A DNA stretch of 64,000 nt from a virus, in UHGV virus genome UHGV-0134778; one strand, 5' to 3'. Within the stretch, counting starts at the first letter, position 1. Each line of letters starts with the position of its first letter. The notes under the pieces were generated by a model. The model was not told the origin of the DNA. It worked only from the letters and a program-made list of their open reading frames with translations, and made no database searches. The position numbers and the translations under genes are program-made. Shown in pieces: positions 3,910 through 13,660 of this stretch.

Positions 3910-4149
3910 ATGTATAAGTCATTTTCAATCTACTCAAGACAGACAAAACACTACACAGAGATTCTGATCACTCAGAAAAAATCTGTGGAAGGTGAGTGGG
4001 AATATCATCATAAAATGTTGCGTCCAGACTGGGTTTTTGACAGGCTTATTGCTATGATCCCTCTTGGAGAAGTATACCCTCTGACAGGTCATAGGGATGC
4101 TTGGGATTTAATTGACTATATAGATTCATTTAAGGAGCCTAGATTATGA
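3910..4149 (+). CDS. hypothetical protein
   Basis: ATG 3910 preceded by AGAGGGGG RBS; the longer track ORF starts at 3877. Confidence 0.4.
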   Translation: MYKSFSIYSRQTKHYTEILITQKKSVEGEWEYHHKMLRPDWVFDRLIAMIPLGEVYPLTGHRDAWDLIDYIDSFKEPRL

Positions 4150-4544
4150 AGATTGAGATTACTGAAGAAGGTAAGAAAGTCTCTGGTAACTATGCAACAG
4201 TTATCCGTGATGTAATGTTCGAAGTCACTAAGATTGGCACATCCAAGGTTGGTCAAACGGTGAGTGTGCAAGGTAATATCACCTCAGGAGAGAAGATATT
4301 CATCGTAATAAAAGGCCAGGACCCTGTAGAAGGGACAGTTGGACGTGGCGGATACCTGTGTATCTCTGAAGAGCCTCGCATGCTAGTTGCTGATAACTCT
4401 ACAGGTAAAAAGCGGGTATGTAACACGGACGAGGTGATGATTATCTATCCAGTCAACCCGGATGATCCGGCAACATGGATTGTGGGAAATGAAATCTTCT
4501 CTTTAGAAGAGTTATCCTTCCCAGCTCCGCGATCTGTTCAGTAA
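4146..4544 (+). CDS. hypothetical protein
   Basis: 132-aa ORF; start overlaps the upstream stop (ATGA); RBS AAGGAG. Confidence 0.5.
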   Translation: MKIEITEEGKKVSGNYATVIRDVMFEVTKIGTSKVGQTVSVQGNITSGEKIFIVIKGQDPVEGTVGRGGYLCISEEPRMLVADNSTGKKRVCNTDEVMIIYPVNPDDPATWIVGNEIFSLEELSFPAPRSVQ

Positions 4545-4583
4545 TAATTTATCTTACCAGGGACGGTAAAAGTAGGAGGTAGC

Positions 4584-4817
4584 ATGAAAGTTAAATTTCT
4601 TACAGATTTAGGGTACCCTTCCTTGGTTGACTGTGTTGGTAAAATTGTGGAAGCAAAACGGCTATCTGCAAACGATAATGTTGTCATGGTTAAGGGAAAA
4701 GATTTACTAGCTGCAGGTGCAGAGTCTGGCAGGATCTCTCCTGACTATACGTATTACCTGTCTTTAAGTAATCTACCAGAACGAGGCGGCAAAGGCCTTG
4801 AAGTTGTGGAGGAGTGA
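4584..4817 (+). CDS. small acidic protein, EVVEE-tail paralogue family
   Basis: MKVKFL... and C-terminal ...LEVVEE; shares the KG.DL.AAGA core with 8142 and 8359. RBS GGAGG. Confidence 0.5.
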   Translation: MKVKFLTDLGYPSLVDCVGKIVEAKRLSANDNVVMVKGKDLLAAGAESGRISPDYTYYLSLSNLPERGGKGLEVVEE

Positions 4818-4822
4818 CAGGT

Positions 4823-5359
4823 ATGCTTCTGATTAACTGGGAAGACCTCTATGGGGACAAAGACCCTGTTGCGTTTGTTGATCGTAGGTGGAGGTACACT
4901 GAAGAACAACTGGCTGCAAAAAATTTAACTGCAAAACGCAGAAAGATCATCCAGTGCAAGTACAAATACGCACAGTTTGCTGCAAAAGTGTCTCCACAAA
5001 TCGAGAGTTTTGTACTTAAATTGTATGACGAGTACCTCAAATTCAAATTGGATTTTGTACAGGTATACCGTGCACAGGTACGTCCAGATACCAACATCTG
5101 TAGATGGAAGGTTGTTTGTGATGGTAAAGATTTGCCGCTCAGTTTGACAATTGAGTGGCGTTGGGGGTATCATGAGTGCGGTTTGTATGATATTTGGGAT
5201 GTCATTGTAGATCCTGCTAAGTACCTGAACACAGAGGAGCTGGAATATATCAATAAGGTTATTCTAGATATGTTTTTCAGCTACACCCATGAAAACTCTG
5301 AGAAAGAACGGGATAATTTTCTTGACACCCTCGGCAACCACCTGCAGTGTACAATTTAA
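4823..5359 (+). CDS. hypothetical protein
   Basis: ATG 4823 after GGAGGAG; the track alternative is GTG 4814. Confidence 0.5.
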   Translation: MLLINWEDLYGDKDPVAFVDRRWRYTEEQLAAKNLTAKRRKIIQCKYKYAQFAAKVSPQIESFVLKLYDEYLKFKLDFVQVYRAQVRPDTNICRWKVVCDGKDLPLSLTIEWRWGYHECGLYDIWDVIVDPAKYLNTEELEYINKVILDMFFSYTHENSEKERDNFLDTLGNHLQCTI

Positions 5360-5377
5360 CCTACAAAGGAGGAGCCA

Positions 5378-5581
5378 ATGAGTATAGATGCTGTGCTGAT
5401 AGGTTACCTGGTAGTAGCTGTTATAACAGCAGTAATCTTGGCAGGTATATGCATCGTGTCTACCCGAAGGGTGAAGTTTGATGATTTTATCACCATCATC
5501 ACTGCTGCGCCCTTTTGGCCTGTTGTTATCTTCATCGTAATAATGTGCCTAGTTGATTACCACAAGAATATCCGTAAGTAG
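5378..5581 (+). CDS. small membrane protein
   Basis: 67 aa with two hydrophobic stretches (LVVAVITAVILAGICIV and WPVVIFIVIMCLV); RBS AAGGAGGAG. Confidence 0.5.
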   Translation: MSIDAVLIGYLVVAVITAVILAGICIVSTRRVKFDDFITIITAAPFWPVVIFIVIMCLVDYHKNIRK

Positions 5582-5597
5582 AAAAAGGAGAGTAGGG

Positions 5598-5750
5598 ATG
5601 GATACCGCACCTAAAACTGTTTATACTGTTCTTAAAGAGATTGCATTCTACGCAGATCTTAGCCGGGCACCTTTATGGGAAAAGAATATGTATTTAAAAT
5701 GGTGCGTGAAATTAGGGGGGCCTTCTAATGTTTCAAGCCATGTTTATTGA
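5598..5750 (+). CDS. hypothetical protein (50 aa)
   Basis: ATG 5598 after AAGGAGAG; the track ORF from 5553 would overlap the previous gene. Confidence 0.35.
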   Translation: MDTAPKTVYTVLKEIAFYADLSRAPLWEKNMYLKWCVKLGGPSNVSSHVY

Positions 5751-5833
5751 AATGCTCTCTGGGGTATTACTGCTGGTAGCCATTTTAGGTGGCGCGGCGC
5801 TGATGTATAATTATCTTGAAAAAGGGGACAGTA

Positions 5834-6019
5834 ATGACAAAAAATAAATCCTTAGAACAGGCTGAAAACCTTCTCCACGAGCTGGTAAAGGAGTGGAAAG
5901 TTGAATACTCAGATTTTAATGCAAGAGAGGGGGAAGATTATTGGCCTACGGAGCGCTCAGAGGGAGAGTGGTATCAAGATTTCATAGAATGGCTATATCA
6001 GACGTGCGATGAGGGGTGA
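5834..6019 (+). CDS. hypothetical protein
   Basis: ATG 5834 after AAGGGGAC; acidic, Trp-rich small protein. Confidence 0.45.
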   Translation: MTKNKSLEQAENLLHELVKEWKVEYSDFNAREGEDYWPTERSEGEWYQDFIEWLYQTCDEG

Positions 6020-6477
6020 CGATGTTTGTTAAATATGTAAAAACGTGCCTCAACAACCTTGGTAGAGAGCATTGGTACACACTGCTTGAAAAAGGAGAAA
6101 TTTTAACAAAATCTGGAAAGATAACTTTGATACCTTTGGACGATAAAGACCCGTCACTACTTGTCATAGATGATTACGTTACAGGTGTGTCGTACGAGGT
6201 ATCTGTGGAGAGGTTAATACGCAGATCTGGAGGTCCTTATGACCGAAGAGAGTATGTTTTCGATTCCGTTACAGAGAAGGAAGATCCGTCTCTAATGTTT
6301 AGGATGGTAATCAGGGATATGAAATCATCTATAAATAGGATCGTAAAGGACATTAAGGAGCCTTTTAGGGTAAAAGTTAAGAAGTTTTTTGATTCTAAGA
6401 TCAACATACTTGCAGTTGTGCTAGGCGTAATTCAACTTCTGTTAATTTTGCACTATTTTGAACTGTTGTTTAAGTAA
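6016..6477 (+). CDS. hypothetical protein with C-terminal hydrophobic segment
   Basis: 153 aa; start overlaps upstream stop; C-terminal ILAVVLGVIQLLLILHYF is hydrophobic. Confidence 0.5.
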   Translation: MTMFVKYVKTCLNNLGREHWYTLLEKGEILTKSGKITLIPLDDKDPSLLVIDDYVTGVSYEVSVERLIRRSGGPYDRREYVFDSVTEKEDPSLMFRMVIRDMKSSINRIVKDIKEPFRVKVKKFFDSKINILAVVLGVIQLLLILHYFELLFK

Positions 6478-6537
6478 TGTGCATTATGGCACAAAGGATG
6501 TGCCATAACTAAATAAACTAAGAAAGAGGTAGAGAGA

Positions 6538-6885
6538 ATGTCAAAGATTAAATCGATATTAATGTGGGTGGCTGTTGTAGCTTTTGTAGGATACTGGACT
6601 TGGGAAACTGAATTAAAAGATATTGGGTATACCAGTCTTGAGAGTAAGGCGTGCATTGGCATAACCGATGCATTCAGGCAGAATGCTATGGATCACGAAT
6701 GTGTCGATGCAGATATAGATGAGAAACTGTCTAAGGACAAAGATTTTTACCATGGTCATGCCTTGCTTGATAGTGGTGATACTGTAGAATTCTGGTCGTG
6801 GTTCCGTGAAGATGGGACAATAAAGACAGCAGTAAAGATTTCCAACAAAGAGTTGATGCTGTTGCAGCAGAAGGAGGTGCAATGA
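6538..6885 (+). CDS. hypothetical secreted or membrane-anchored protein
   Basis: N-terminal signal/anchor-like LMWVAVVAFVGYWTW; RBS AAGAGG. Confidence 0.5.
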   Translation: MSKIKSILMWVAVVAFVGYWTWETELKDIGYTSLESKACIGITDAFRQNAMDHECVDADIDEKLSKDKDFYHGHALLDSGDTVEFWSWFREDGTIKTAVKISNKELMLLQQKEVQ

Positions 6886-7151
6886 TCTGGATATCCTACG
6901 CTGATGGCACCATGCTGTATACTGCAGGTACTAGATATGAAGTTAAGGAGGACGATAAAAAATTTATCGTAAAAACATTTGACAAGGACGACAACCTTTT
7001 GCTAGAATTGACTTACAAGGTTGGGGATGTATCTAGCATCCAATTGGATTGCGGTCATAAAGATAACCCGCTCAAGAAACCTGGGGTAGGTAAAGCTTCA
7101 GAAGAACGCCTGTCTCGTATTGCAGAAAGCGTTTCTGCACAAAAAATCTAA
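6882..7151 (+). CDS. hypothetical protein
   Basis: 89 aa; ATGA overlap with the upstream gene. Confidence 0.5.
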   Translation: MIWISYADGTMLYTAGTRYEVKEDDKKFIVKTFDKDDNLLLELTYKVGDVSSIQLDCGHKDNPLKKPGVGKASEERLSRIAESVSAQKI

Positions 7152-7166
7152 AAAGGGGACTAGAAA

Positions 7167-7361
7167 ATGAAAAACTTACATTTTAACACTTATTACTACA
7201 ACACTTTGAATGATTTGTATTATATTGTTCGAAGTAAAAATCCTGAAACAGTCCTATTCTGCCGCGAACCTTTCAAAGGAGAGGAAGTGGAGTCTGAGAT
7301 GAATGTTAGCCAGATTACCTCTTTGTTGCTCTCAGGTGCAATGGAAGAAGCAATATTCTAA
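7167..7361 (+). CDS. hypothetical protein
   Basis: 64 aa; RBS AAGGGGA. Confidence 0.45.
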   Translation: MKNLHFNTYYYNTLNDLYYIVRSKNPETVLFCREPFKGEEVESEMNVSQITSLLLSGAMEEAIF

Positions 7362-7379
7362 ACCAGGCGGGAGGGTTTT

Positions 7380-7568
7380 ATGAAGCACTATTGTCTGTCT
7401 GGTAGGATGGGGGTGGATTGTGATTGGGTTTTCTTAAAACTTGTCAGCGTTCGAGAGTCCATCCCAGAGGAAGAGCAAGAAAGCGAGCTGATGTCATGGA
7501 TCAACCATTACGGTAACACTTTTCGGCATGTTAAGGTAGAAGAGTTGCCAAGCGAGGCTGAATTATGA
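7380..7568 (+). CDS. hypothetical protein
   Basis: 62 aa; RBS GGGAGGG. Confidence 0.4.
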   Translation: MKHYCLSGRMGVDCDWVFLKLVSVRESIPEEEQESELMSWINHYGNTFRHVKVEELPSEAEL

Positions 7569-7861
7569 AACTTTTTGAGTGGTTTAAAAAGTTTAAATAT
7601 AAAGCTGTAGCCATCGTGCCGTGGTCCATTCAGTGGGTTGATGAAGGTGGTCTACCGATACCTGGTGACAAAGATACTGGGTACTGGATTATGATGGAGA
7701 ACGGGTTTGGAAAGCGAAAGTATACGTGCACAAACTCTACTCGATCTGCACTTAATAGAGTGCCTGGTTACAAACTTATGGTTGTGTGGAAAATGTCAGG
7801 CGTGCCTCCAGCCAATGCTCAATTTCTTACTGACAATCCGACCACGGTAGAGGGAGATTGA
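7565..7861 (+). CDS. hypothetical protein
   Basis: 98 aa; ATGA overlap. Confidence 0.5.
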   Translation: MKLFEWFKKFKYKAVAIVPWSIQWVDEGGLPIPGDKDTGYWIMMENGFGKRKYTCTNSTRSALNRVPGYKLMVVWKMSGVPPANAQFLTDNPTTVEGD

Positions 7862-8145
7862 TAATGAAAAAGATTAACAGTAGTGAAGTAGAGTTTAAAC
7901 TTGTCGGAAAAGGCACTTACTGGGAAGTTCGTCAAAAGGTATATTTGTTCGGTCTTATTCCCTACTGGTCTAAATTCTACTGGGGAGCTAACGAGTTGGG
8001 AAGATACGCCACCAAATCAATGGCACTTATTGGTATAGCAGAGTACATTGCAGCCCGAGACAGGGTTGGAACCACTTATTACTACACTGCTGACGATATT
8101 CGTAACAGTGTTTACGTCCCACAACCACCTGATGGAGACCGTTGA
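7858..8145 (+). CDS. hypothetical protein
   Basis: 95 aa; overlapping start/stop. Confidence 0.5.
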   Translation: MIMKKINSSEVEFKLVGKGTYWEVRQKVYLFGLIPYWSKFYWGANELGRYATKSMALIGIAEYIAARDRVGTTYYYTADDIRNSVYVPQPPDGDR

Positions 8146-8369
8146 TGAAAGTTAAAGTTTTAGATTCAAGCTTCTATATTGGTCAGGAGCCTTTAGTAGG
8201 AAAAGTGTTTACTGCTGTCCCTAACGAAGATTACCCTGACCTTTTAAAAATAAAAGGAGCAGATCTTATTGCCGCTGGTGCATCTCAGGAATGCTTTGAC
8301 AGTCAGTGGACCTATAACTTTGCCCTAGGTGAGGATGTAGAGGTAGTGGAGGACGATCATGAAGGTTAA
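8142..8369 (+). CDS. small acidic protein, EVVEE-tail paralogue family
   Basis: MMKVKVLD...KGADLIAAGA...VEVVED; paralogue of 4584 and 8359. Confidence 0.5.
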   Translation: MMKVKVLDSSFYIGQEPLVGKVFTAVPNEDYPDLLKIKGADLIAAGASQECFDSQWTYNFALGEDVEVVEDDHEG

Positions 8370-8613
8370 AATTCTTGATTCTAACGTCTACTTGGGACAA
8401 TCCTTCCTGAATGGAAAGGTCGTTCCTGCGGTATACTTTGAAGGGTTGCCGTGGGATGATCCTGTGCGGCAACATCACAGTTATGTAGGCCACAACGTGG
8501 TGTTTATCTTGGGATCAGACCTGATCACCGCTGGTGCACCTGAATATTATTTCGGGGAAGAGTCCTACTATGCCTTTGGGGTAGGGTCAGATGCAGATAT
8601 TGTAGAGCTGTGA
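8359..8613 (+). CDS. small acidic protein, EVVEE-tail paralogue family
   Basis: MKVKILD...GSDLITAGA...; tandem paralogue of 8142. Confidence 0.5.
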   Translation: MKVKILDSNVYLGQSFLNGKVVPAVYFEGLPWDDPVRQHHSYVGHNVVFILGSDLITAGAPEYYFGEESYYAFGVGSDADIVEL

Positions 8614-8625
8614 TGGGTAACCGTT

Positions 8626-9024
8626 GTGAAAAATAAACTGTTTAAAGTTACAATGAAAATTCGCGGAGCTTGGAGCGTAAAGCAAGGGCGCATCCCAGAG
8701 TTTGAGAAAGACTTCTACGTAGTCTCCACCTCTGAAGAGGCTGCATGCTGGCAGGCTGGATATGCCTATGCAAGAACCTGGTACGAAGGATACCAGACTG
8801 GAGGCTATGACGGAGAAATTGTCAGCAAGGGTGTGGAAGAAATTAATGTGTTGACAAGTGAAAAAGTTTTTGTTATAGTGCATCCTGATTCTAGAGTGAA
8901 GCATTACTGGAATGCCAGAACAAAAACCTGGACACCGTTTGCAGATTCTGCTACACCGCTTTTAAACCAGAAAGCTCTTGACTCTGCCCCAAGCTATGGG
9001 GTTGTTGAAGAAAAGATAAGCTGA
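8626..9024 (+). CDS. hypothetical protein, paralogue of 10833..11228
   Basis: HPDSRVKHYWNARTKTWTP matches HPHSNIAYYWDVLNNEWTP in 10833..11228; start is GTG. Confidence 0.5.
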   Translation: MKNKLFKVTMKIRGAWSVKQGRIPEFEKDFYVVSTSEEAACWQAGYAYARTWYEGYQTGGYDGEIVSKGVEEINVLTSEKVFVIVHPDSRVKHYWNARTKTWTPFADSATPLLNQKALDSAPSYGVVEEKIS

Positions 9025-9041
9025 AATAGTGGGGTACTTAC

Positions 9042-9332
9042 ATGATGGATTTAGTTTTGGACACTGATAACACCGAATCGTTTAAAAAAGATGGTGTAAT
9101 AAGCATGGACCAACCCTGCCATGCCAAGATTGACTCAAAATGGACCTACAAGTTTGACGGTGAGATCTTCGCAAATGATGAGAAGGTCGTGGATGCTGTA
9201 GCCATTTTAAACGCTTTAGGGTATGACCCTGTGAACTCATTGATCAAGGATCCTGTTGAGTTTGCAGAGTATGTTCGTAAAATGGCAGATCTTGCAGTAG
9301 ATATTTTAAAAACTATCGACGACAAGCTGTAA
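9042..9332 (+). CDS. hypothetical protein
   Basis: 96-aa ORF. Confidence 0.5.
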   Translation: MMDLVLDTDNTESFKKDGVISMDQPCHAKIDSKWTYKFDGEIFANDEKVVDAVAILNALGYDPVNSLIKDPVEFAEYVRKMADLAVDILKTIDDKL

Positions 9333-9338
9333 AAACTG

Positions 9339-9400
9339 TTGACACAACACTTGATCTTTAGTATCATTATTTTCAAAGAGGGTTTGGTTCCCTCTTCTTT
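9339..9400 (+). promoter_or_regulatory. sigma70-type promoter with hairpin at the predicted transcript 5' end (hpf leader)
   Basis: TTGACA (9339-9344), 17 nt, TATCAT (9362-9367); hairpin AGAGGG-TTTGGTT-CCCTCT at 9377-9395 followed by TCTTT, then RBS AAGGAG. Confidence 0.55.
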
Positions 9401-9414
9401 AAAAGGAGCACGTT

Positions 9415-9732
9415 ATGCAGATTGAAATCACTGGCAACGTAGAGATCACTGAAGGTATGGTGTCTTTCATTTCCCACAAAATGTCCAAACTGGAGCGTTT
9501 GCACCCATCTGCCAACTATGCACGTGTGAGTGTAAAAGTTGAAAATGATCACCAGGAAGTTATGGCTTTTATTTTTGACAATTCTGGGAAAGAAGTTATC
9601 GCCAAAGCTAAAGGTAGCGATGCTTACGAGGCAACTGACCGTATGGTGGATGTTGCAGCACGCCAGTTGGCTAAATGCGGTGGAAAGAAAGGTAAGGGAA
9701 AAGGTAAAGTAAAGATTGACTTTTTAGATTAA
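9415..9732 (+). CDS. hpf: ribosome hibernation promoting factor / RaiA (YfiA) family homologue
   Basis: MQIEITGNVEITEGM...VSVKVEN...AKGSDAYEATDRMVDVAARQLAK tracks the recalled E. coli HPF MQLNITGNNVEITEAL...VVLKVEK...AEGQDMYAAIDGLIDKLARQLTK. Lys/Gly-rich tail. Own promoter 9339-9367 and RBS AAGGAG. Confidence 0.7.
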   Translation: MQIEITGNVEITEGMVSFISHKMSKLERLHPSANYARVSVKVENDHQEVMAFIFDNSGKEVIAKAKGSDAYEATDRMVDVAARQLAKCGGKKGKGKGKVKIDFLD

Positions 9733-9741
9733 GGTGCTACA

Positions 9742-9843
9742 ATGGGCATGATTAAGAAATTAGTCCCAAATGTAGAGATTGCATGCTTTGAAATTATGTT
9801 TGCAATCGCAGTTGTAGTTAATGTGTTAGGTTACGGCTATTAA
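9742..9843 (+). CDS. micro-protein, hydrophobic (33 aa)
   Basis: ATG 9742 after AAGGTG; sequence IACFEIMFAIAVVVNVLGY is transmembrane-like. Below the track cutoff. Confidence 0.3.
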   Translation: MGMIKKLVPNVEIACFEIMFAIAVVVNVLGYGY

Positions 9844-9870
9844 TTATCAAATAATTGAGGAGACCTCTAA

Positions 9871-10140
9871 ATGAAAATTAAATTATTCAAAACTGAGCTG
9901 GCAGACAAAAACTGCGGACTGGTTGAAGGCATGATCGTTGAAGCACAACCAGTTGACTACATGAAGGTGGTTCGTGATGCCCTGGGTGAAGGTTTTGATC
10001 TGATGGAGCCAGCTCTGCGAGAAGATGTCATCGAGATGGCTAAAAAGCACACACCGGAAGGTTTGGTAGTGTTTGTTGCACCAGGTAACGGGGAAGAGTT
10101 GATTGTAACTCCGGATGTGTATGAGGTTGTAGAAGAGTAA
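9871..10140 (+). CDS. small acidic protein, EVVEE-tail paralogue family
   Basis: MKIKLFK... ending ...YEVVEE; RBS GAGGAG. Confidence 0.5.
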   Translation: MKIKLFKTELADKNCGLVEGMIVEAQPVDYMKVVRDALGEGFDLMEPALREDVIEMAKKHTPEGLVVFVAPGNGEELIVTPDVYEVVEE

Positions 10141-10232
10141 TCCTGCTTGGGTTGGAATACTTTCCTCGACAAGAAAGGTTTATAATTATTTGTGGGAAAG
10201 GAATCCCCATCTCTTACCAGAGGTGATACTAT

Positions 10233-10496
10233 ATGATTGTTTATTTTAAAACTTCAGGTGGATACCCTGATTCTCAAAGCTTGATTGGAAAAACGTGCAC
10301 AGCATACTCACCTCTTGATGAGGAGGTAAGTGGTATCCTACGAGATATGTATCGGATTGATCCACAAGAAGCTTTTGATCAAAACCTTGTATTTGTCAAG
10401 GGATCAGACATAAAGTCTTTGGGGGCATTCCCTGAAGCAGATGATGATGCTGTTTATTCGTTTATGACACCTTTTGAAGCTATGGTTGTGGGGTAA
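10233..10496 (+). CDS. small acidic protein related to the EVVEE family
   Basis: ...LVFVKGSDIKSLGA... core resembles 8142 and 8359. Confidence 0.5.
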   Translation: MIVYFKTSGGYPDSQSLIGKTCTAYSPLDEEVSGILRDMYRIDPQEAFDQNLVFVKGSDIKSLGAFPEADDDAVYSFMTPFEAMVVG

Positions 10497-10500
10497 GAAT

Positions 10501-10833
10501 ATGAAAGTACGCTTTATTGGTGAAACAATTCCTGTGCATCTCCGGTCTCCTGAAGACTCTGCAGATCTTGCATCTCAAAAGGCGAGAGGGTATGATAAGA
10601 AAGTGATCTCAAGCAATGTAGAGCTTGAGGCCACCAGTCTGCCTGACCCAGCTGCATTCTTCAATCATTATGGCTACTATTTTAGCAATCTGATGAATAT
10701 TGGTGAGCTTGTGTTTATTAGTGGTGGAGAGATAGTTAGCAAGCTTGGTGGAGATCCGGATATCTTTCATGAAACCTGTCCTTTTGCATTTGTGGTGGGT
10801 TCAGATGTGGAAGTTATTGAGGAGGTTCGGTAA
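10501..10833 (+). CDS. small acidic protein, EVVEE-tail paralogue family
   Basis: MKVRFIG... with LVFISGGEIVSKLG core and C-terminal VGSDVEVIEEVR. The track ORF from 10474 overlaps the previous gene. Confidence 0.5.
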   Translation: MKVRFIGETIPVHLRSPEDSADLASQKARGYDKKVISSNVELEATSLPDPAAFFNHYGYYFSNLMNIGELVFISGGEIVSKLGGDPDIFHETCPFAFVVGSDVEVIEEVR

Positions 10834-11228
10834 TGGTAAGTCTATACCGTGTTGAGTATAGCTCGGATACTGTATACAACGTAAGAAGCAAAGATCGCAG
10901 TGATAGAGTGCAAGAAATGTATGTTCTTGCAGATAGTCCGTTATCTGCAGCGTTCAAGGCAGGAGCTCTTGCATCTCGTTGGAAATTTGAGGGTGGATCT
11001 TTCTATGAAGAAACCCTCGAAGATTCTGTTGTTATTTCTTCTGTAGAGGTTTCAACCGACTACGAAGGGAAAAAGTTCGTAATGCGGCACCCACACAGCA
11101 ACATTGCGTACTACTGGGATGTTCTGAACAATGAGTGGACACCTGATCTTCAGAAGGCCACTGTTCTAACCCCATTCCTGGCAGATAAGTTCCCACCAGA
11201 AGGTAATTTATCTGCACTGTTTCAGTAA
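10833..11228 (+). CDS. hypothetical protein, paralogue of 8626..9024
   Basis: 131 aa; shares the HP..YW....WTP block with 8626..9024. Confidence 0.5.
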   Translation: MVSLYRVEYSSDTVYNVRSKDRSDRVQEMYVLADSPLSAAFKAGALASRWKFEGGSFYEETLEDSVVISSVEVSTDYEGKKFVMRHPHSNIAYYWDVLNNEWTPDLQKATVLTPFLADKFPPEGNLSALFQ

Positions 11229-11239
11229 TTTTATGCCAC

Positions 11240-11275
11240 ACAGGTGTTGACAACACCAACCCTGTGTGCAATAAT
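11240..11275 (+). promoter_or_regulatory. sigma70-type promoter overlapped by nested palindromes (candidate operator)
   Basis: TTGACA (11247-11252), 17 nt, AATAAT (11270-11275). CACAGG/CCTGTG and GGTGTT/AACACC inverted repeats are centred on the -35. Confidence 0.5.
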
Positions 11276-11304
11276 ACCTTCATCTTAACAAGATAGGAGA
11301 CCGA

Positions 11305-11565
11305 TTGATGAAGATTAAATTGAAAAACCTTGAAACGGCAGAGATTCAGGAAGGTGTTGATTTCCGTTCTAAAGATGGAGACATCCTAGAGGCGAATGTC
11401 CCGACATATAAGTTGATTAAAGGTTTTGGCAACGTTCCGGAGGAGGATATTACAGACATTCTTATGATGTTGATCCTTGACGGGACTGTGTTTGTAGGTG
11501 AAGGTGAGAACGCTATTGCAATCCCGAGCCATTTTTATGAAGTAGTTGACGAAGAGGTGCTGTAA
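11305..11565 (+). CDS. small acidic protein, EVVEE-tail paralogue family
   Basis: MMKIKLKNL... ending ...YEVVDEEVL; preceded by the palindromic promoter at 11240-11275. Confidence 0.5.
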   Translation: MMKIKLKNLETAEIQEGVDFRSKDGDILEANVPTYKLIKGFGNVPEEDITDILMMLILDGTVFVGEGENAIAIPSHFYEVVDEEVL

Positions 11566-11916
11566 ATGAAAGTAGAGATCACAGGTTTTGATATGAATGC
11601 GGTTCCGGAAGATATTTTAGCTAAACTCCCGGAAGGTTTTGGTAACGGTGTTGTGGTTGATGCTGTTCCTCCTACCAAAGACATCCTGCTGCAGTATGGT
11701 GTGGCAGAGGAAGATGTTGATAAAGTTCTTACAATGATGGCAATCGACCGTGTTGTCGTTGTTAAAGGTCTTGAAGGTTTTGATAACGATCCTCTGATTA
11801 TTCGTGGTGATGACTATCGTATCATCGACAACGAAGGTCAGGGGTTCTACGAACCTTCTGCTGAAGATGTTCTTAACTTACTACTGGAAGCAGGTACCGT
11901 AGAGGAGGCAGAATAA
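11566..11916 (+). CDS. small acidic protein related to the EVVEE family
   Basis: MKVEITGF... ending ...GTVEEAE; start adjacent to upstream stop. Confidence 0.5.
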   Translation: MKVEITGFDMNAVPEDILAKLPEGFGNGVVVDAVPPTKDILLQYGVAEEDVDKVLTMMAIDRVVVVKGLEGFDNDPLIIRGDDYRIIDNEGQGFYEPSAEDVLNLLLEAGTVEEAE

Positions 11917-12245
11917 TGAAAATTGATCCGTTACTGAAGGCTCGTGCAGAAAAAGCATACACTATTAAGCTGACCTCTCTGGTTCCTACTTGTCATCCAG
12001 ATGTAGGTTGGCCTGAAGGTCTGGTAGAGGGGACTGTAACAGCCGCATATCTCCCTAACATCAAATACCTCATGGAGATCTTGGAGATGGATGAGGAAAC
12101 GGCAGAACAGTTCCAGTTAGACATGAAGCAAAGTGGGACTCTGGTTATTCACGGGTGGTATAATACTAAAGATGCAGAAGATCCCCTGGTAACTTCTAAT
12201 CTGGCATATGAGATCTTAGGGCCTTTGAACTTGGGGGAAGACTAA
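11916..12245 (+). CDS. hypothetical protein
   Basis: 109 aa; ATGA coupling. Confidence 0.5.
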   Translation: MKIDPLLKARAEKAYTIKLTSLVPTCHPDVGWPEGLVEGTVTAAYLPNIKYLMEILEMDEETAEQFQLDMKQSGTLVIHGWYNTKDAEDPLVTSNLAYEILGPLNLGED

Positions 12246-12532
12246 TGAAAGATTTGGTTAAGATCAAGATTAAAGACACCAATGGAGAACTCAGCCATTT
12301 TGGAATTAACGATGGTGACGAGCTGATCGCCCACCTGCCTACCAAGGAAGTTGTAAGCAAAGCGGTTGCCGGAGAAGAAGATGCAATGCAGGCTGCAGGT
12401 GTGGATGAAAACTATGTAGCAATGTGTATGTGCCGAGATCAGGTTGTTCTGTATAAAGCGTATCGACCAAATGGAGCACCTGAGTGGCTTGTTTTCCGAC
12501 CCGAAGGATATGAAATTTTAGAGACGCTATGA
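12245..12532 (+). CDS. hypothetical protein
   Basis: 95 aa; ATGA coupling. Confidence 0.5.
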   Translation: MKDLVKIKIKDTNGELSHFGINDGDELIAHLPTKEVVSKAVAGEEDAMQAAGVDENYVAMCMCRDQVVLYKAYRPNGAPEWLVFRPEGYEILETL

Positions 12533-12612
12533 TAAATCTTGCCAAGGTTGCAACGGCACTGTTAATTATTTGCTGGATAGTGACCTTGGCACTATGTCTT
12601 GTATTTCATTAA
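12529..12612 (+). CDS. micro-protein, hydrophobic (27 aa)
   Basis: ATG overlaps the upstream stop; ALLIICWIVTLALCLVF is one transmembrane-length segment. Confidence 0.25.
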   Translation: MINLAKVATALLIICWIVTLALCLVFH

Positions 12613-12621
12613 GGGGGCTGT

Positions 12622-12885
12622 ATGAACATCTTGGTGTGGGTTGTAGCAGTAGCGTTTGTTGCGTGCCTCTCTTGTTGGGTTGCTGTGAGGATTTCTATAG
12701 CCACTCTTCGGAAATTAGGGTTCTCAGAGTGGGATATTAATATCCTTTCTTTTCGCAATGAGACAATCTCAGCCGCCCTGCTGTGTAAGAAGTTTAAGTG
12801 GGAACCTTGTGAGGTCATGAACTATCTAAGAACAGGAGATATTCCTGAGAGATTTAAAAAAGTTCTTGACGGCAAAGACAAATGA
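12622..12885 (+). CDS. membrane-anchored hypothetical protein
   Basis: N-terminal ILVWVVAVAFVACLSCWVAV; RBS AAGGGGG. Confidence 0.45.
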   Translation: MNILVWVVAVAFVACLSCWVAVRISIATLRKLGFSEWDINILSFRNETISAALLCKKFKWEPCEVMNYLRTGDIPERFKKVLDGKDK

Positions 12886-12913
12886 TAGTATAGTGACTAA
12901 CAAGAGGTGAGGA

Positions 12914-13054
12914 ATGACTGATTTTACTGAAGCTTTAATGATGGCCTTATCTGTTTTAGCGCTATCGGTGTGTTTTGGGGCGTTATTCACATCTCTGGTT
13001 AAAGTTTTACATACCATATTCTCACCCAAGGAGCACAGTAATGACGAAGATTGA
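12914..13054 (+). CDS. micro-protein, hydrophobic (46 aa)
   Basis: ATG 12914 after AGAGGTGAGG; MMALSVLALSVCFGALF is a membrane segment. Confidence 0.3.
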   Translation: MTDFTEALMMALSVLALSVCFGALFTSLVKVLHTIFSPKEHSNDED

Positions 13055-13626: not shown

Positions 13627-13632
13627 CAACGA

Positions 13633-13660
13633 AGAGGGGTCTTGGCCCCTCTTTTTTACT
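13633..13660 (+). terminator. intrinsic terminator
   Basis: AGAGGGG-TCTTGG-CCCCTCT followed by TTTTTT. Confidence 0.7.

Follow-up and report, generated by a model that had tools for sequence, protein, structure and literature searches.

Two tandemly expanded families of small, mostly acidic, predicted SH3-like proteins in an rV5-like Vequintavirus genome

The virus genome UHGV-0134778, analysed here as a stretch of 64,000 nucleotides (the window), carries between positions 4584 and 12532 a rightward cluster of small genes, ten of which fall into two five-member families: A (4584, 8145, 8359, 10233, and 10501, named by their start positions) and B (9871, 11308, 11566, 11916, and 12245). For both, the predicted fold is a five-stranded SH3-like beta-barrel, and we regard them, with a probability of roughly 0.55, as two ancient, tandemly expanded SH3-like families that would act as stoichiometric protein-binding modules. 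An earlier reading made by a model from the letters and their open reading frames (ORFs), hereafter the sequence-only reading, had assigned at least eight adjacent genes to a single family of small acidic proteins with MK[VI]K starts, a shared central block, and E-V-V-E-E-like tails. All eight ORFs that it listed exist at the starts given and encode 74–116 amino acids (aa), and small, mostly acidic proteins have indeed been expanded in tandem; however, the multiple alignment and hidden Markov model (HMM) building that it had proposed recover a five-member A and a five-member B instead of one family, and two members lying within the same interval, 11916 and 12245, had been missed.

Two sequence families and their distribution

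Subfamily alignments were made from metagenomic homologues, and HMMs built without one subfamily were searched against all 554 ORFs of the window. The omitted gene was the top non-training match in every search for both families, with E-values of 1e-5 to 1e-21 in family A (next ORF about 0.05 or weaker) and of 2e-8 to 5e-4 in family B (next ORF about 1 or weaker). Because each omitted member is recovered by these leave-one-out models, A and B are, at the level of sequence, two real five-member families, far beyond chance. All-against-all BLASTP among the 33 rightward genes gave, besides the 8145–8359 match (Table 1), links in family A between 4584 and 8145 (9e-8) and between 8359 and 10501 (1e-4), with weaker ones to 10233, and in family B between 11308 and 11566 (7e-4), with weak ones to 12245 and 9871. 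Pairwise identity is 17–47% in A and 19–33% in B. In profile-profile comparisons, 4584, 8145, and 8359 matched one another at 96–99% probability and were joined by 10233 and 10501 at 70–92%; the five members of B reached only 10–36% among themselves. The hhalign probabilities of 10233 and 10501 against the broad A profile (98.5 and 98.4%, respectively) are not independent, as that profile contains both sequences.

The G-x-D-L-I-x-A-G-A block, which had been claimed for all eight genes, is carried by family A alone, as KGKDLLAAGA in 4584, KGADLIAAGA in 8145, LGSDLITAGA in 8359, KGSDIKSLGA in 10233, and a weak SGGEIVSKLGG in 10501, and is missing from 9871, 11308 (11305 in the sequence-only reading), and 11566. 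Likewise, a full-length profile match combined with a G-x-[DE]-[LI]-x-x-x-G-[AG] block and a Y-x-F strand was found in all five A members and not in 9871, 11308, or 11566. The members of B have their own collinear pattern, consisting of strand 1, G-x-x-x-x-A, P-[TN], a helical insert with EE[DE], G-x-V-V, and L ... Y-E-[IV]-[IVL]. The whole core, and not just the acidic tail, is shared within each family, while the likeness between A and B lies mostly in the termini MK[VI]K and E-V-V-E-E. A second pair of genes that had been noticed in the cluster, 8653 (or 8626, from an alternative start) and 10833, hereafter pair C, does consist of paralogs (BLASTP 2e-9), both of which belong to phrog_7379 and contain H-P-x-S-x4-Y-W-x6-W-T-P.

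The window proteins match their PHROG profiles over the full length (E 1e-32 to 1e-74), and all of these profiles are listed as "unknown function". The genes 4584, 8145, 8359, and weakly 10233 fall into phrog_5009, and the remaining genes each match a separate family, so that PHROGs divides A into three clusters (phrog_5009, 13920, and 13661) and B into five (11868, 12359, 12155, 12457, and 12794), and records no function, fold, or paralogy. No meaningful match of the ten proteins or their distant relatives was found in Pfam, NCBIfam, PADLOC, or PDB sequence searches; in Pfam, neither the ten proteins nor the distant A members matched any family, including the SH3, KOW, Sm/LSM, and ribosomal-protein families, which were searched with the ten proteins at E up to 1. 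The sole PDB sequence match was to an ankyrin-like "LLEAGAD" motif and was rejected as spurious. No further copy of A or B was found in the rest of the window or in the rest of the rV5 genome. A literature search by PHROG numbers and Vequintavirus paralogs found no description of the two families, and the words paralog and duplication were not found in the rV5 genome paper.

Family A is part of a wider, uncharacterised family of phage small-protein domains. When 1.84 billion representatives were scanned in full by HMMER with the A profile, 39 clusters were found at E <= 1e-3, mostly of free-standing proteins of 63–108 aa, with the wider consensus MKVKLLNDGGY-x-GM...GKVVEA...I-x-G-x-ELI-x-AGA...F...Y-x-F..G-x-E-x-E-V-I-E-E. 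In P0108, P0109, and P0123, which come from unidentified contigs, the A domain occurs as two- or threefold tandem fusions, sometimes with an extra C-terminal domain, which hints that the domain may work in multiple copies. The matches of two giant proteins, P0098 (of 4388 aa, in which YDG and MBG domains occur) and P0125, were treated as spurious, because just a short repeated motif, "V-x-F-x-S-G-x-D-I-I-L-A-G", matches the A profile. Searching with the A consensus sequence by tblastn revealed matches in the lambdoid phages mEp044, mEp515, and MagusPhagus, Proteus phages, Iodobacter phage PhiPLPE, the Citrobacter T4-like phages Moon and CF1, and the Vibrio phages VnaP and VPMCC14, together with a weaker match in CHOED (E 0.3) and a partial one in LP.1 (E 0.05). 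In E. coli lambdoid prophages, P0030 (45% identical to the 4584 protein) lies in a run of small genes between the antiterminator Q and the holin, a classical moron slot; Proteus phage RS51pmB has two A copies upstream of its holin, and Vibrio phage VnaP has one, located after the replication genes. Family B was found by tblastn in Vequintavirus only, and the one structural relative from the BFVD, 86 aa long, belongs to Vibrio phage Vc1 (31% identity, TM 0.73, E 5e-5). For pair C, a word-indexed homologue search gave only Vequintavirus-like contigs.

Bases 4000–13000 of the window match more than 110 rV5-like E. coli myophages over the full length at 93–96.6% identity, the best being vB_EcoM-ECP26 (96.6%), and by this sequence match the window is an rV5-like Vequintavirus; relatives in this genus have genomes of about 136 kb. 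The five A and five B genes are syntenic in every genome checked (EmilHeitz, FFH2, phiWec189, Aya, and rV5). The Nei-Gojobori ratio of nonsynonymous to synonymous substitutions (dN/dS) is 0.02–0.17 for all ten genes against EmilHeitz, FFH2, phiWec189, and Aya, and neighbouring genes behave alike. Every paralog is retained in each of the genomes checked and is under purifying selection. The genes are therefore functional, and the duplications are older than the genus. Only the expansion is lineage-specific, with 5 + 5 copies fixed in the genus; family A itself occurs across many groups of phages and in prophages.

The order A-A-C is present twice, at 8145-8359-8653 (8145–9024) and 10233-10501-10833 (10233–11228), and this repetition suggests that a three-gene cassette was duplicated as a segment long ago. 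Against this, 8145 and 8359 are 47% identical to each other but only 22–32% identical to their supposed counterparts, a pattern that would call for gene conversion after the duplication or for unequal rates. The metagenomic sequences P0014, P0027, and P0036 are natural chimeras or deletions among A paralogs with the junction at the D-L-I-A-A-G-A motif; P0014 joins the N-terminal half of 8145 to the C-terminal half of 8359, and P0027 joins a prophage-type N-terminal half to the C-terminal half of 8145. These chimeras appear to indicate ongoing unequal recombination.

Predicted fold and gene junctions

Structure prediction, by which the sequence-only reading had proposed to look for a common fold, gave SH3-like barrels for both families. 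The AlphaFold2 model of the A protein 8145, made with the family alignment, has a mean predicted local distance difference test (pLDDT) score of 90.3, with strands at residues 2–5, 21–23, 33–37, 56–61, and 65–69 and a short helix at 38–43 formed by the D-L-I-A-A-G motif. The model of the B protein 11308, made in the same way (pLDDT 88.4), has the strand order of 8145 and carries a two-helix insertion between strands 2 and 3. Both models show five antiparallel strands in a small barrel and structural matches to SH3, KOW, or PsaE domains, and A and B are accordingly predicted to belong to the same fold class. Sequence identity to known SH3-like small barrels (eukaryotic SH3, KOW, PsaE, and the PhnA C-terminal domain) is 4–25%. 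Unlike these SH3-type domains, A has the conserved helix-turn G-x-D-L-I-x-A-G-A after strand 3 and B the two-helix insertion between strands 2 and 3; moreover, the A and B proteins stand alone and are not domains of larger proteins. The most conserved residues of A (G38, G45, Y57, and F59) are grouped in one loop-helix segment.

The proteins are small, soluble, single-domain, and mostly acidic. They have no hydrophobic segment, the maximum 19-aa hydropathy being at most 1.41, compared with 2.6–2.8 in neighbouring membrane peptides. The isoelectric point (pI) is 4.05–4.7 in all but one of them (median about 4.5; 5.3 for neighbouring genes), net charge ranges from -7 to -18, and the content of Asp plus Glu is 13–22%. 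The description of the set as acidic needs the reservation that acidity is not universal in A: the 4584 protein has a pI of 5.4, its orthologue P0028 one of 7.8, and P0124 one of 7.75. The most acidic protein of the block is 11566 (net charge -18), which has at residues ~88–116 an extra acidic C-terminal segment, NEGQGFYEPSAEDVLNLLLEAGTVEEAE, not present in other B members.

The acidic E-V-V-E-E ends do recur, as had been noticed, but they are neither low-complexity nor disordered appendages. In the A model, MK[VI]K forms the first strand and the E-V-V-E(-E) "tail" the last strand of the barrel, and at the DNA level the tail also embeds a ribosome-binding site. The genes are packed with gaps of 0–6 nucleotides or overlaps, and for seven of the ten the Shine-Dalgarno sequence of the following gene lies within the final codons. 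Dual-coding Glu/Gly codons (GAG GAG, GGG GAA) lie at 4800–4823, 8345–8361, 10815–10835, 11548–11568, 11898–11918, and 12228–12247; examples are the junctions after 4584 (...GTG GAG GAG TGA caggt ATG), 10501 (ATT GAG GAG GTT CGG TA-ATG), and 11566 (GTA GAG GAG GCA GAA TA-ATG). Four of the B genes are contiguous (11308–12532) and probably translationally coupled. The embedded Shine-Dalgarno sequences partly explain the recurrent acidic ends. Because 9871 keeps its YEVVEE with no nearby downstream gene, and distant relatives end in E-[VI]-[VI]-E-E too, structure and ribosome-binding-site coding both shape these Glu-rich ends. For readers of such sequences the lesson is that Glu-rich C-termini in packed phage operons can partly reflect the Shine-Dalgarno sequence of the next gene.

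Relationship of the families and possible function

We consider a common ancestry of A and B likely, though unproven, from the sequence comparisons made here. A serious alternative, with a substantial chance of being right but short of even, is that the two are unrelated and have in common a frequent small-barrel fold, an MK start, and a Shine-Dalgarno-driven Glu-rich end, the single family then being an artefact of termini matched by eye. Neither family's HMM finds the other family at E < 10, hhalign matches the 39-sequence A profile locally to the B profile with a probability of 8% at best (in register over strands 1–2), and the global scores of B members against the A profile (2.0–11.8) lie inside the range of 110 random ORFs (maximum 13.4); the Glu-Glu ends, as described above, serve also as ribosome-binding sites. 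Against unrelatedness, a forced global alignment of A and B is collinear, with strands 1, 2, and 3 on strands 1, 2, and 3 and the EVVEE end on the YEVVDE end, and its score of 17.4 compares with 1.9 +/- 1.6 for column-shuffled B profiles (maximum 7.3) and 6.5 for the reversed profile. In addition, 9871, 11308, and 11566 score 11.8, 10.2, and 7.1 against the A profile and exceed all 23 non-family genes (maximum 5.9), as does 8359; the A and B genes are interleaved within one cluster; and 9871 retains its acidic end although it has no downstream gene to serve.

Both families lie in the rightward block of small genes, behind sigma-70-like promoters. As to function, we propose that each protein would be a stoichiometric protein-binding module, made early or mid infection. 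After duplication, the paralogs may have diverged in specificity, each binding, and thereby inhibiting or redirecting, its own host target, which might be a defence protein, and the four B genes that appear to be translationally coupled may work together. Host-takeover arrays of lytic phages, such as the SPO1 host-takeover module and the early genes of T4 and T5, are dense in short genes with host-type promoters, and many of their products are acidic and several are paralogs. The A/B region resembles these arrays in the density of short genes, the host-type promoters, the acidic proteins, and the paralogs, but has no homology to any characterised member. A precedent is TifA/Orf65 of Enterococcus phage phi47, an acidic protein (21.3% acidic residues) with an SH3-like N-terminal domain, which inhibits a type IV restriction enzyme of the host (PMC11322646). 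It is a small and very acidic phage protein, resembles SH3 in its N-terminal domain, and acts on a host defence protein; unlike the single-domain A and B proteins, it has two domains and comes from another host and phage group, and the likeness is one of analogy and not of membership.

Several points weigh against this reading. The binding partner is hypothetical and the function is an inference, the SH3-like fold is functionally uninformative, and common descent of the two families is unproven, given the hhalign probability and the global scores reported above. The early timing rests on promoter-like sequences and on a transcription unit shared with nucleotide-metabolism genes. All ten genes are strictly conserved across the genus, which is less typical of counter-defence genes, these usually being variable in presence. 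A role as virion component was considered and set aside: the proteins named in the mass spectrometry of rV5 virions include gp133, which is orthologous to the window gene 6016–6477, but no member of either family.

It is improbable, in our judgement, that the proteins are anti-restriction or anti-defence DNA mimics, which would resemble nucleic acid through their acidic surfaces and thus block nucleases of the host in the manner of Ocr, ArdA, and the enterococcal TifA. Their net charge and content of Asp plus Glu would suit such a role, the genes occur in arrays of accessory genes, among them the moron slot between Q and holin in lambdoid prophages, and TifA/Orf65 itself, by its acidic residues and its SH3-like domain, is a precedent (PMC11322646). 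However, the acidity is moderate and, in A, not universal, the ten genes are fixed in the genus instead of being variably present, and PADLOC gave no match. In the BASEL study, moreover, Vequintavirinae were exceptionally sensitive to the restriction-modification systems tested, seemingly without effective protection (PMC8594841), which counts against a broad anti-restriction role.

Similarly improbable is the most far-reaching version of the protein-binding reading, namely that A and B form one unnamed, widespread phage superfamily of free-standing, oligomeric SH3-like barrels, a toolkit neutralising several host or defence targets. Homo- or hetero-oligomers are hinted at because four B genes are probably translationally coupled and the A domain occurs in two- to threefold tandem fusions. 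If it were true, a new class of phage counter-host effectors would be at hand.

Modulators that bind nucleic acid or the ribosome, of KOW, Sm, or L24 type, and act on translation or transcription beside the hibernation-factor homologue in the middle of the cluster (HPF/RaiA; PF02482, 48 bits) are very unlikely. This type of binding is disfavoured because the charge is acidic, the opposite of typical RNA or DNA binders, and the Pfam searches described above brought up no KOW, LSM, or ribosomal-protein match. Least likely, and purely speculative, is a role as Tad/Acb-type sponges for immune signalling nucleotides with the G-x-D-L-I-x-A-G-A turn as ligand pocket: the size and genomic setting of the proteins resemble those of known sponges, the most conserved A residues do lie in one loop-helix segment, and the tandem fusions hint at oligomers, but there is no sequence or fold match to a known sponge family and family B is wholly without the motif.

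The pattern itself is fairly ordinary, as paralogous small accessory proteins of lytic phages are a familiar class, and the suggestion in the sequence-only reading that such proteins mimic or inhibit host factors is plausible and reasonable. About 10 of the roughly 230 genes of rV5-like Vequintavirus, very commonly isolated E. coli phages that are used in biocontrol and phage therapy, fall into A and B, and all ten are annotated as hypothetical proteins only. With two fold-related families under purifying selection, and A recurring in accessory slots, both in lambdoid prophages and in phages of Proteus, Vibrio, and Citrobacter, they are cheap and concrete candidates for host-takeover and counter-defence screens.

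Gene list and genomic setting

The genes and the promoter-like sequences among them are listed in Table 1. The TTG starts 8142 and 11305, which had been used in the sequence-only reading, are one codon upstream of the ATGs 8145 and 11308, and the start at 10501 is the ATG annotated in relatives. In the rV5 reference (NC_011041, 101025–101295), two overlapping ORFs, gp148 and gp149, take the place of a single orthologue of the window gene 12245–12532, and this split reflects either a frameshift or a sequencing error.

Table 1. Genes of families A and B, pair C, and sigma-70-like promoter sequences in the window
Feature	Coordinates	Strand	Evidence
Family A, 77 aa, rV5 gp122 orthologue	4584..4817	+	phrog_5009 E 2.5e-36; leave-one-out HMM E 1.3e-7; hhalign vs 8145 subfamily 99.3%
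Family A, 74 aa, rV5 gp135; alternative TTG start 8142; modelled A protein	8145..8369	+	
Family A, 84 aa, rV5 gp136; 11-nt overlap with preceding gene	8359..8613	+	phrog_5009 E 3.7e-32; BLASTP to 8145 1.4e-14
Pair C paralog, 123 aa, rV5 gp137; alternative GTG start 8626; after two A genes	8653..9024	+	phrog_7379 E 6.5e-69; BLASTP to 10833 2e-9
Putative sigma-70-like promoter upstream of 9871	9716..9743	+	Consensus scan 10/12, pattern match alone
Family B, 89 aa, rV5 gp141	9871..10140	+	Leave-one-out HMM E 2.9e-4, next ORF E 3.5; family alignment
Divergent family A, 87 aa, rV5 gp142; insertion between strands 2 and 3	10233..10496	+	phrog_13920; weak phrog_5009 1.6e-4; leave-one-out HMM E 1.2e-5
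Divergent family A, 110 aa, rV5 gp143; long insertion	10501..10833	+	Leave-one-out HMM E 1.8e-6; hhalign vs 8359 subfamily 92%
Pair C paralog, 131 aa, rV5 gp144; after two A genes	10833..11228	+	phrog_7379 E 4.2e-66
Sigma-70-like promoter (TTGACA-17-AATAAT with TG), preceding the four contiguous B genes	11247..11275	+	Consensus scan 11/12 positions
Family B, 85 aa, rV5 gp145; alternative TTG start 11305; modelled B protein	11308..11565	+	
Family B, 116 aa, rV5 gp146; acidic C-terminal extension	11566..11916	+	Leave-one-out HMM E 2.1e-8
Family B, 109 aa, rV5 gp147; absent from the sequence-only list	11916..12245	+	Leave-one-out HMM E 5.4e-4, next ORF E 1.1
Family B, 95 aa, rV5 gp148 + gp149; absent from the sequence-only list	12245..12532	+	Leave-one-out HMM E 1e-4

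The region is a rightward run of short genes with positive GC skew to about 14 kb. Just upstream, the annotation of relatives lists an anaerobic ribonucleotide reductase, PhoH, a ClpP-like protease, and an adenine methyltransferase, and lists the genes of both families solely as "hypothetical protein". The rV5 genome paper places the region within the transcription unit "genes 82-163", together with nucleotide-metabolism and replication genes, and the rV5 record annotates a promoter, P150, at the place equivalent to 11247..11275.

The HPF/RaiA homologue (a ribosome hibernation factor), mentioned above, is located at 9415–9732 (+) in the middle of the paralog cluster and scores 48 bits with Pfam Ribosomal_S30AE (PF02482), for which the cut-off is 23.7; a strong sigma-70-like promoter of its own, corresponding to rV5 P144, lies at 9339–9367. 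Between this gene and the first B gene sits a 33-codon ORF (9742–9843, +) for a hydrophobic peptide, MGMIKKLVPNVEIACFEIMFAIAVVVNVLGYGY, which is gp140 of rV5 in the annotation of relatives. A strong bidirectional terminator-like hairpin at 13631–13654 and ~14000, with a 10-bp stem and a T-run on the plus strand and an 8-bp terminator-like match on the minus strand, is found near the sign change of the GC skew and marks the end of the rightward block. Finally, 18 records named "Campylobacter phage" (host C. jejuni; e.g., MG065646 and MG065647) are about 94% identical to the region over its full length, and these are probably mislabelled or derived from contaminating coliphages.

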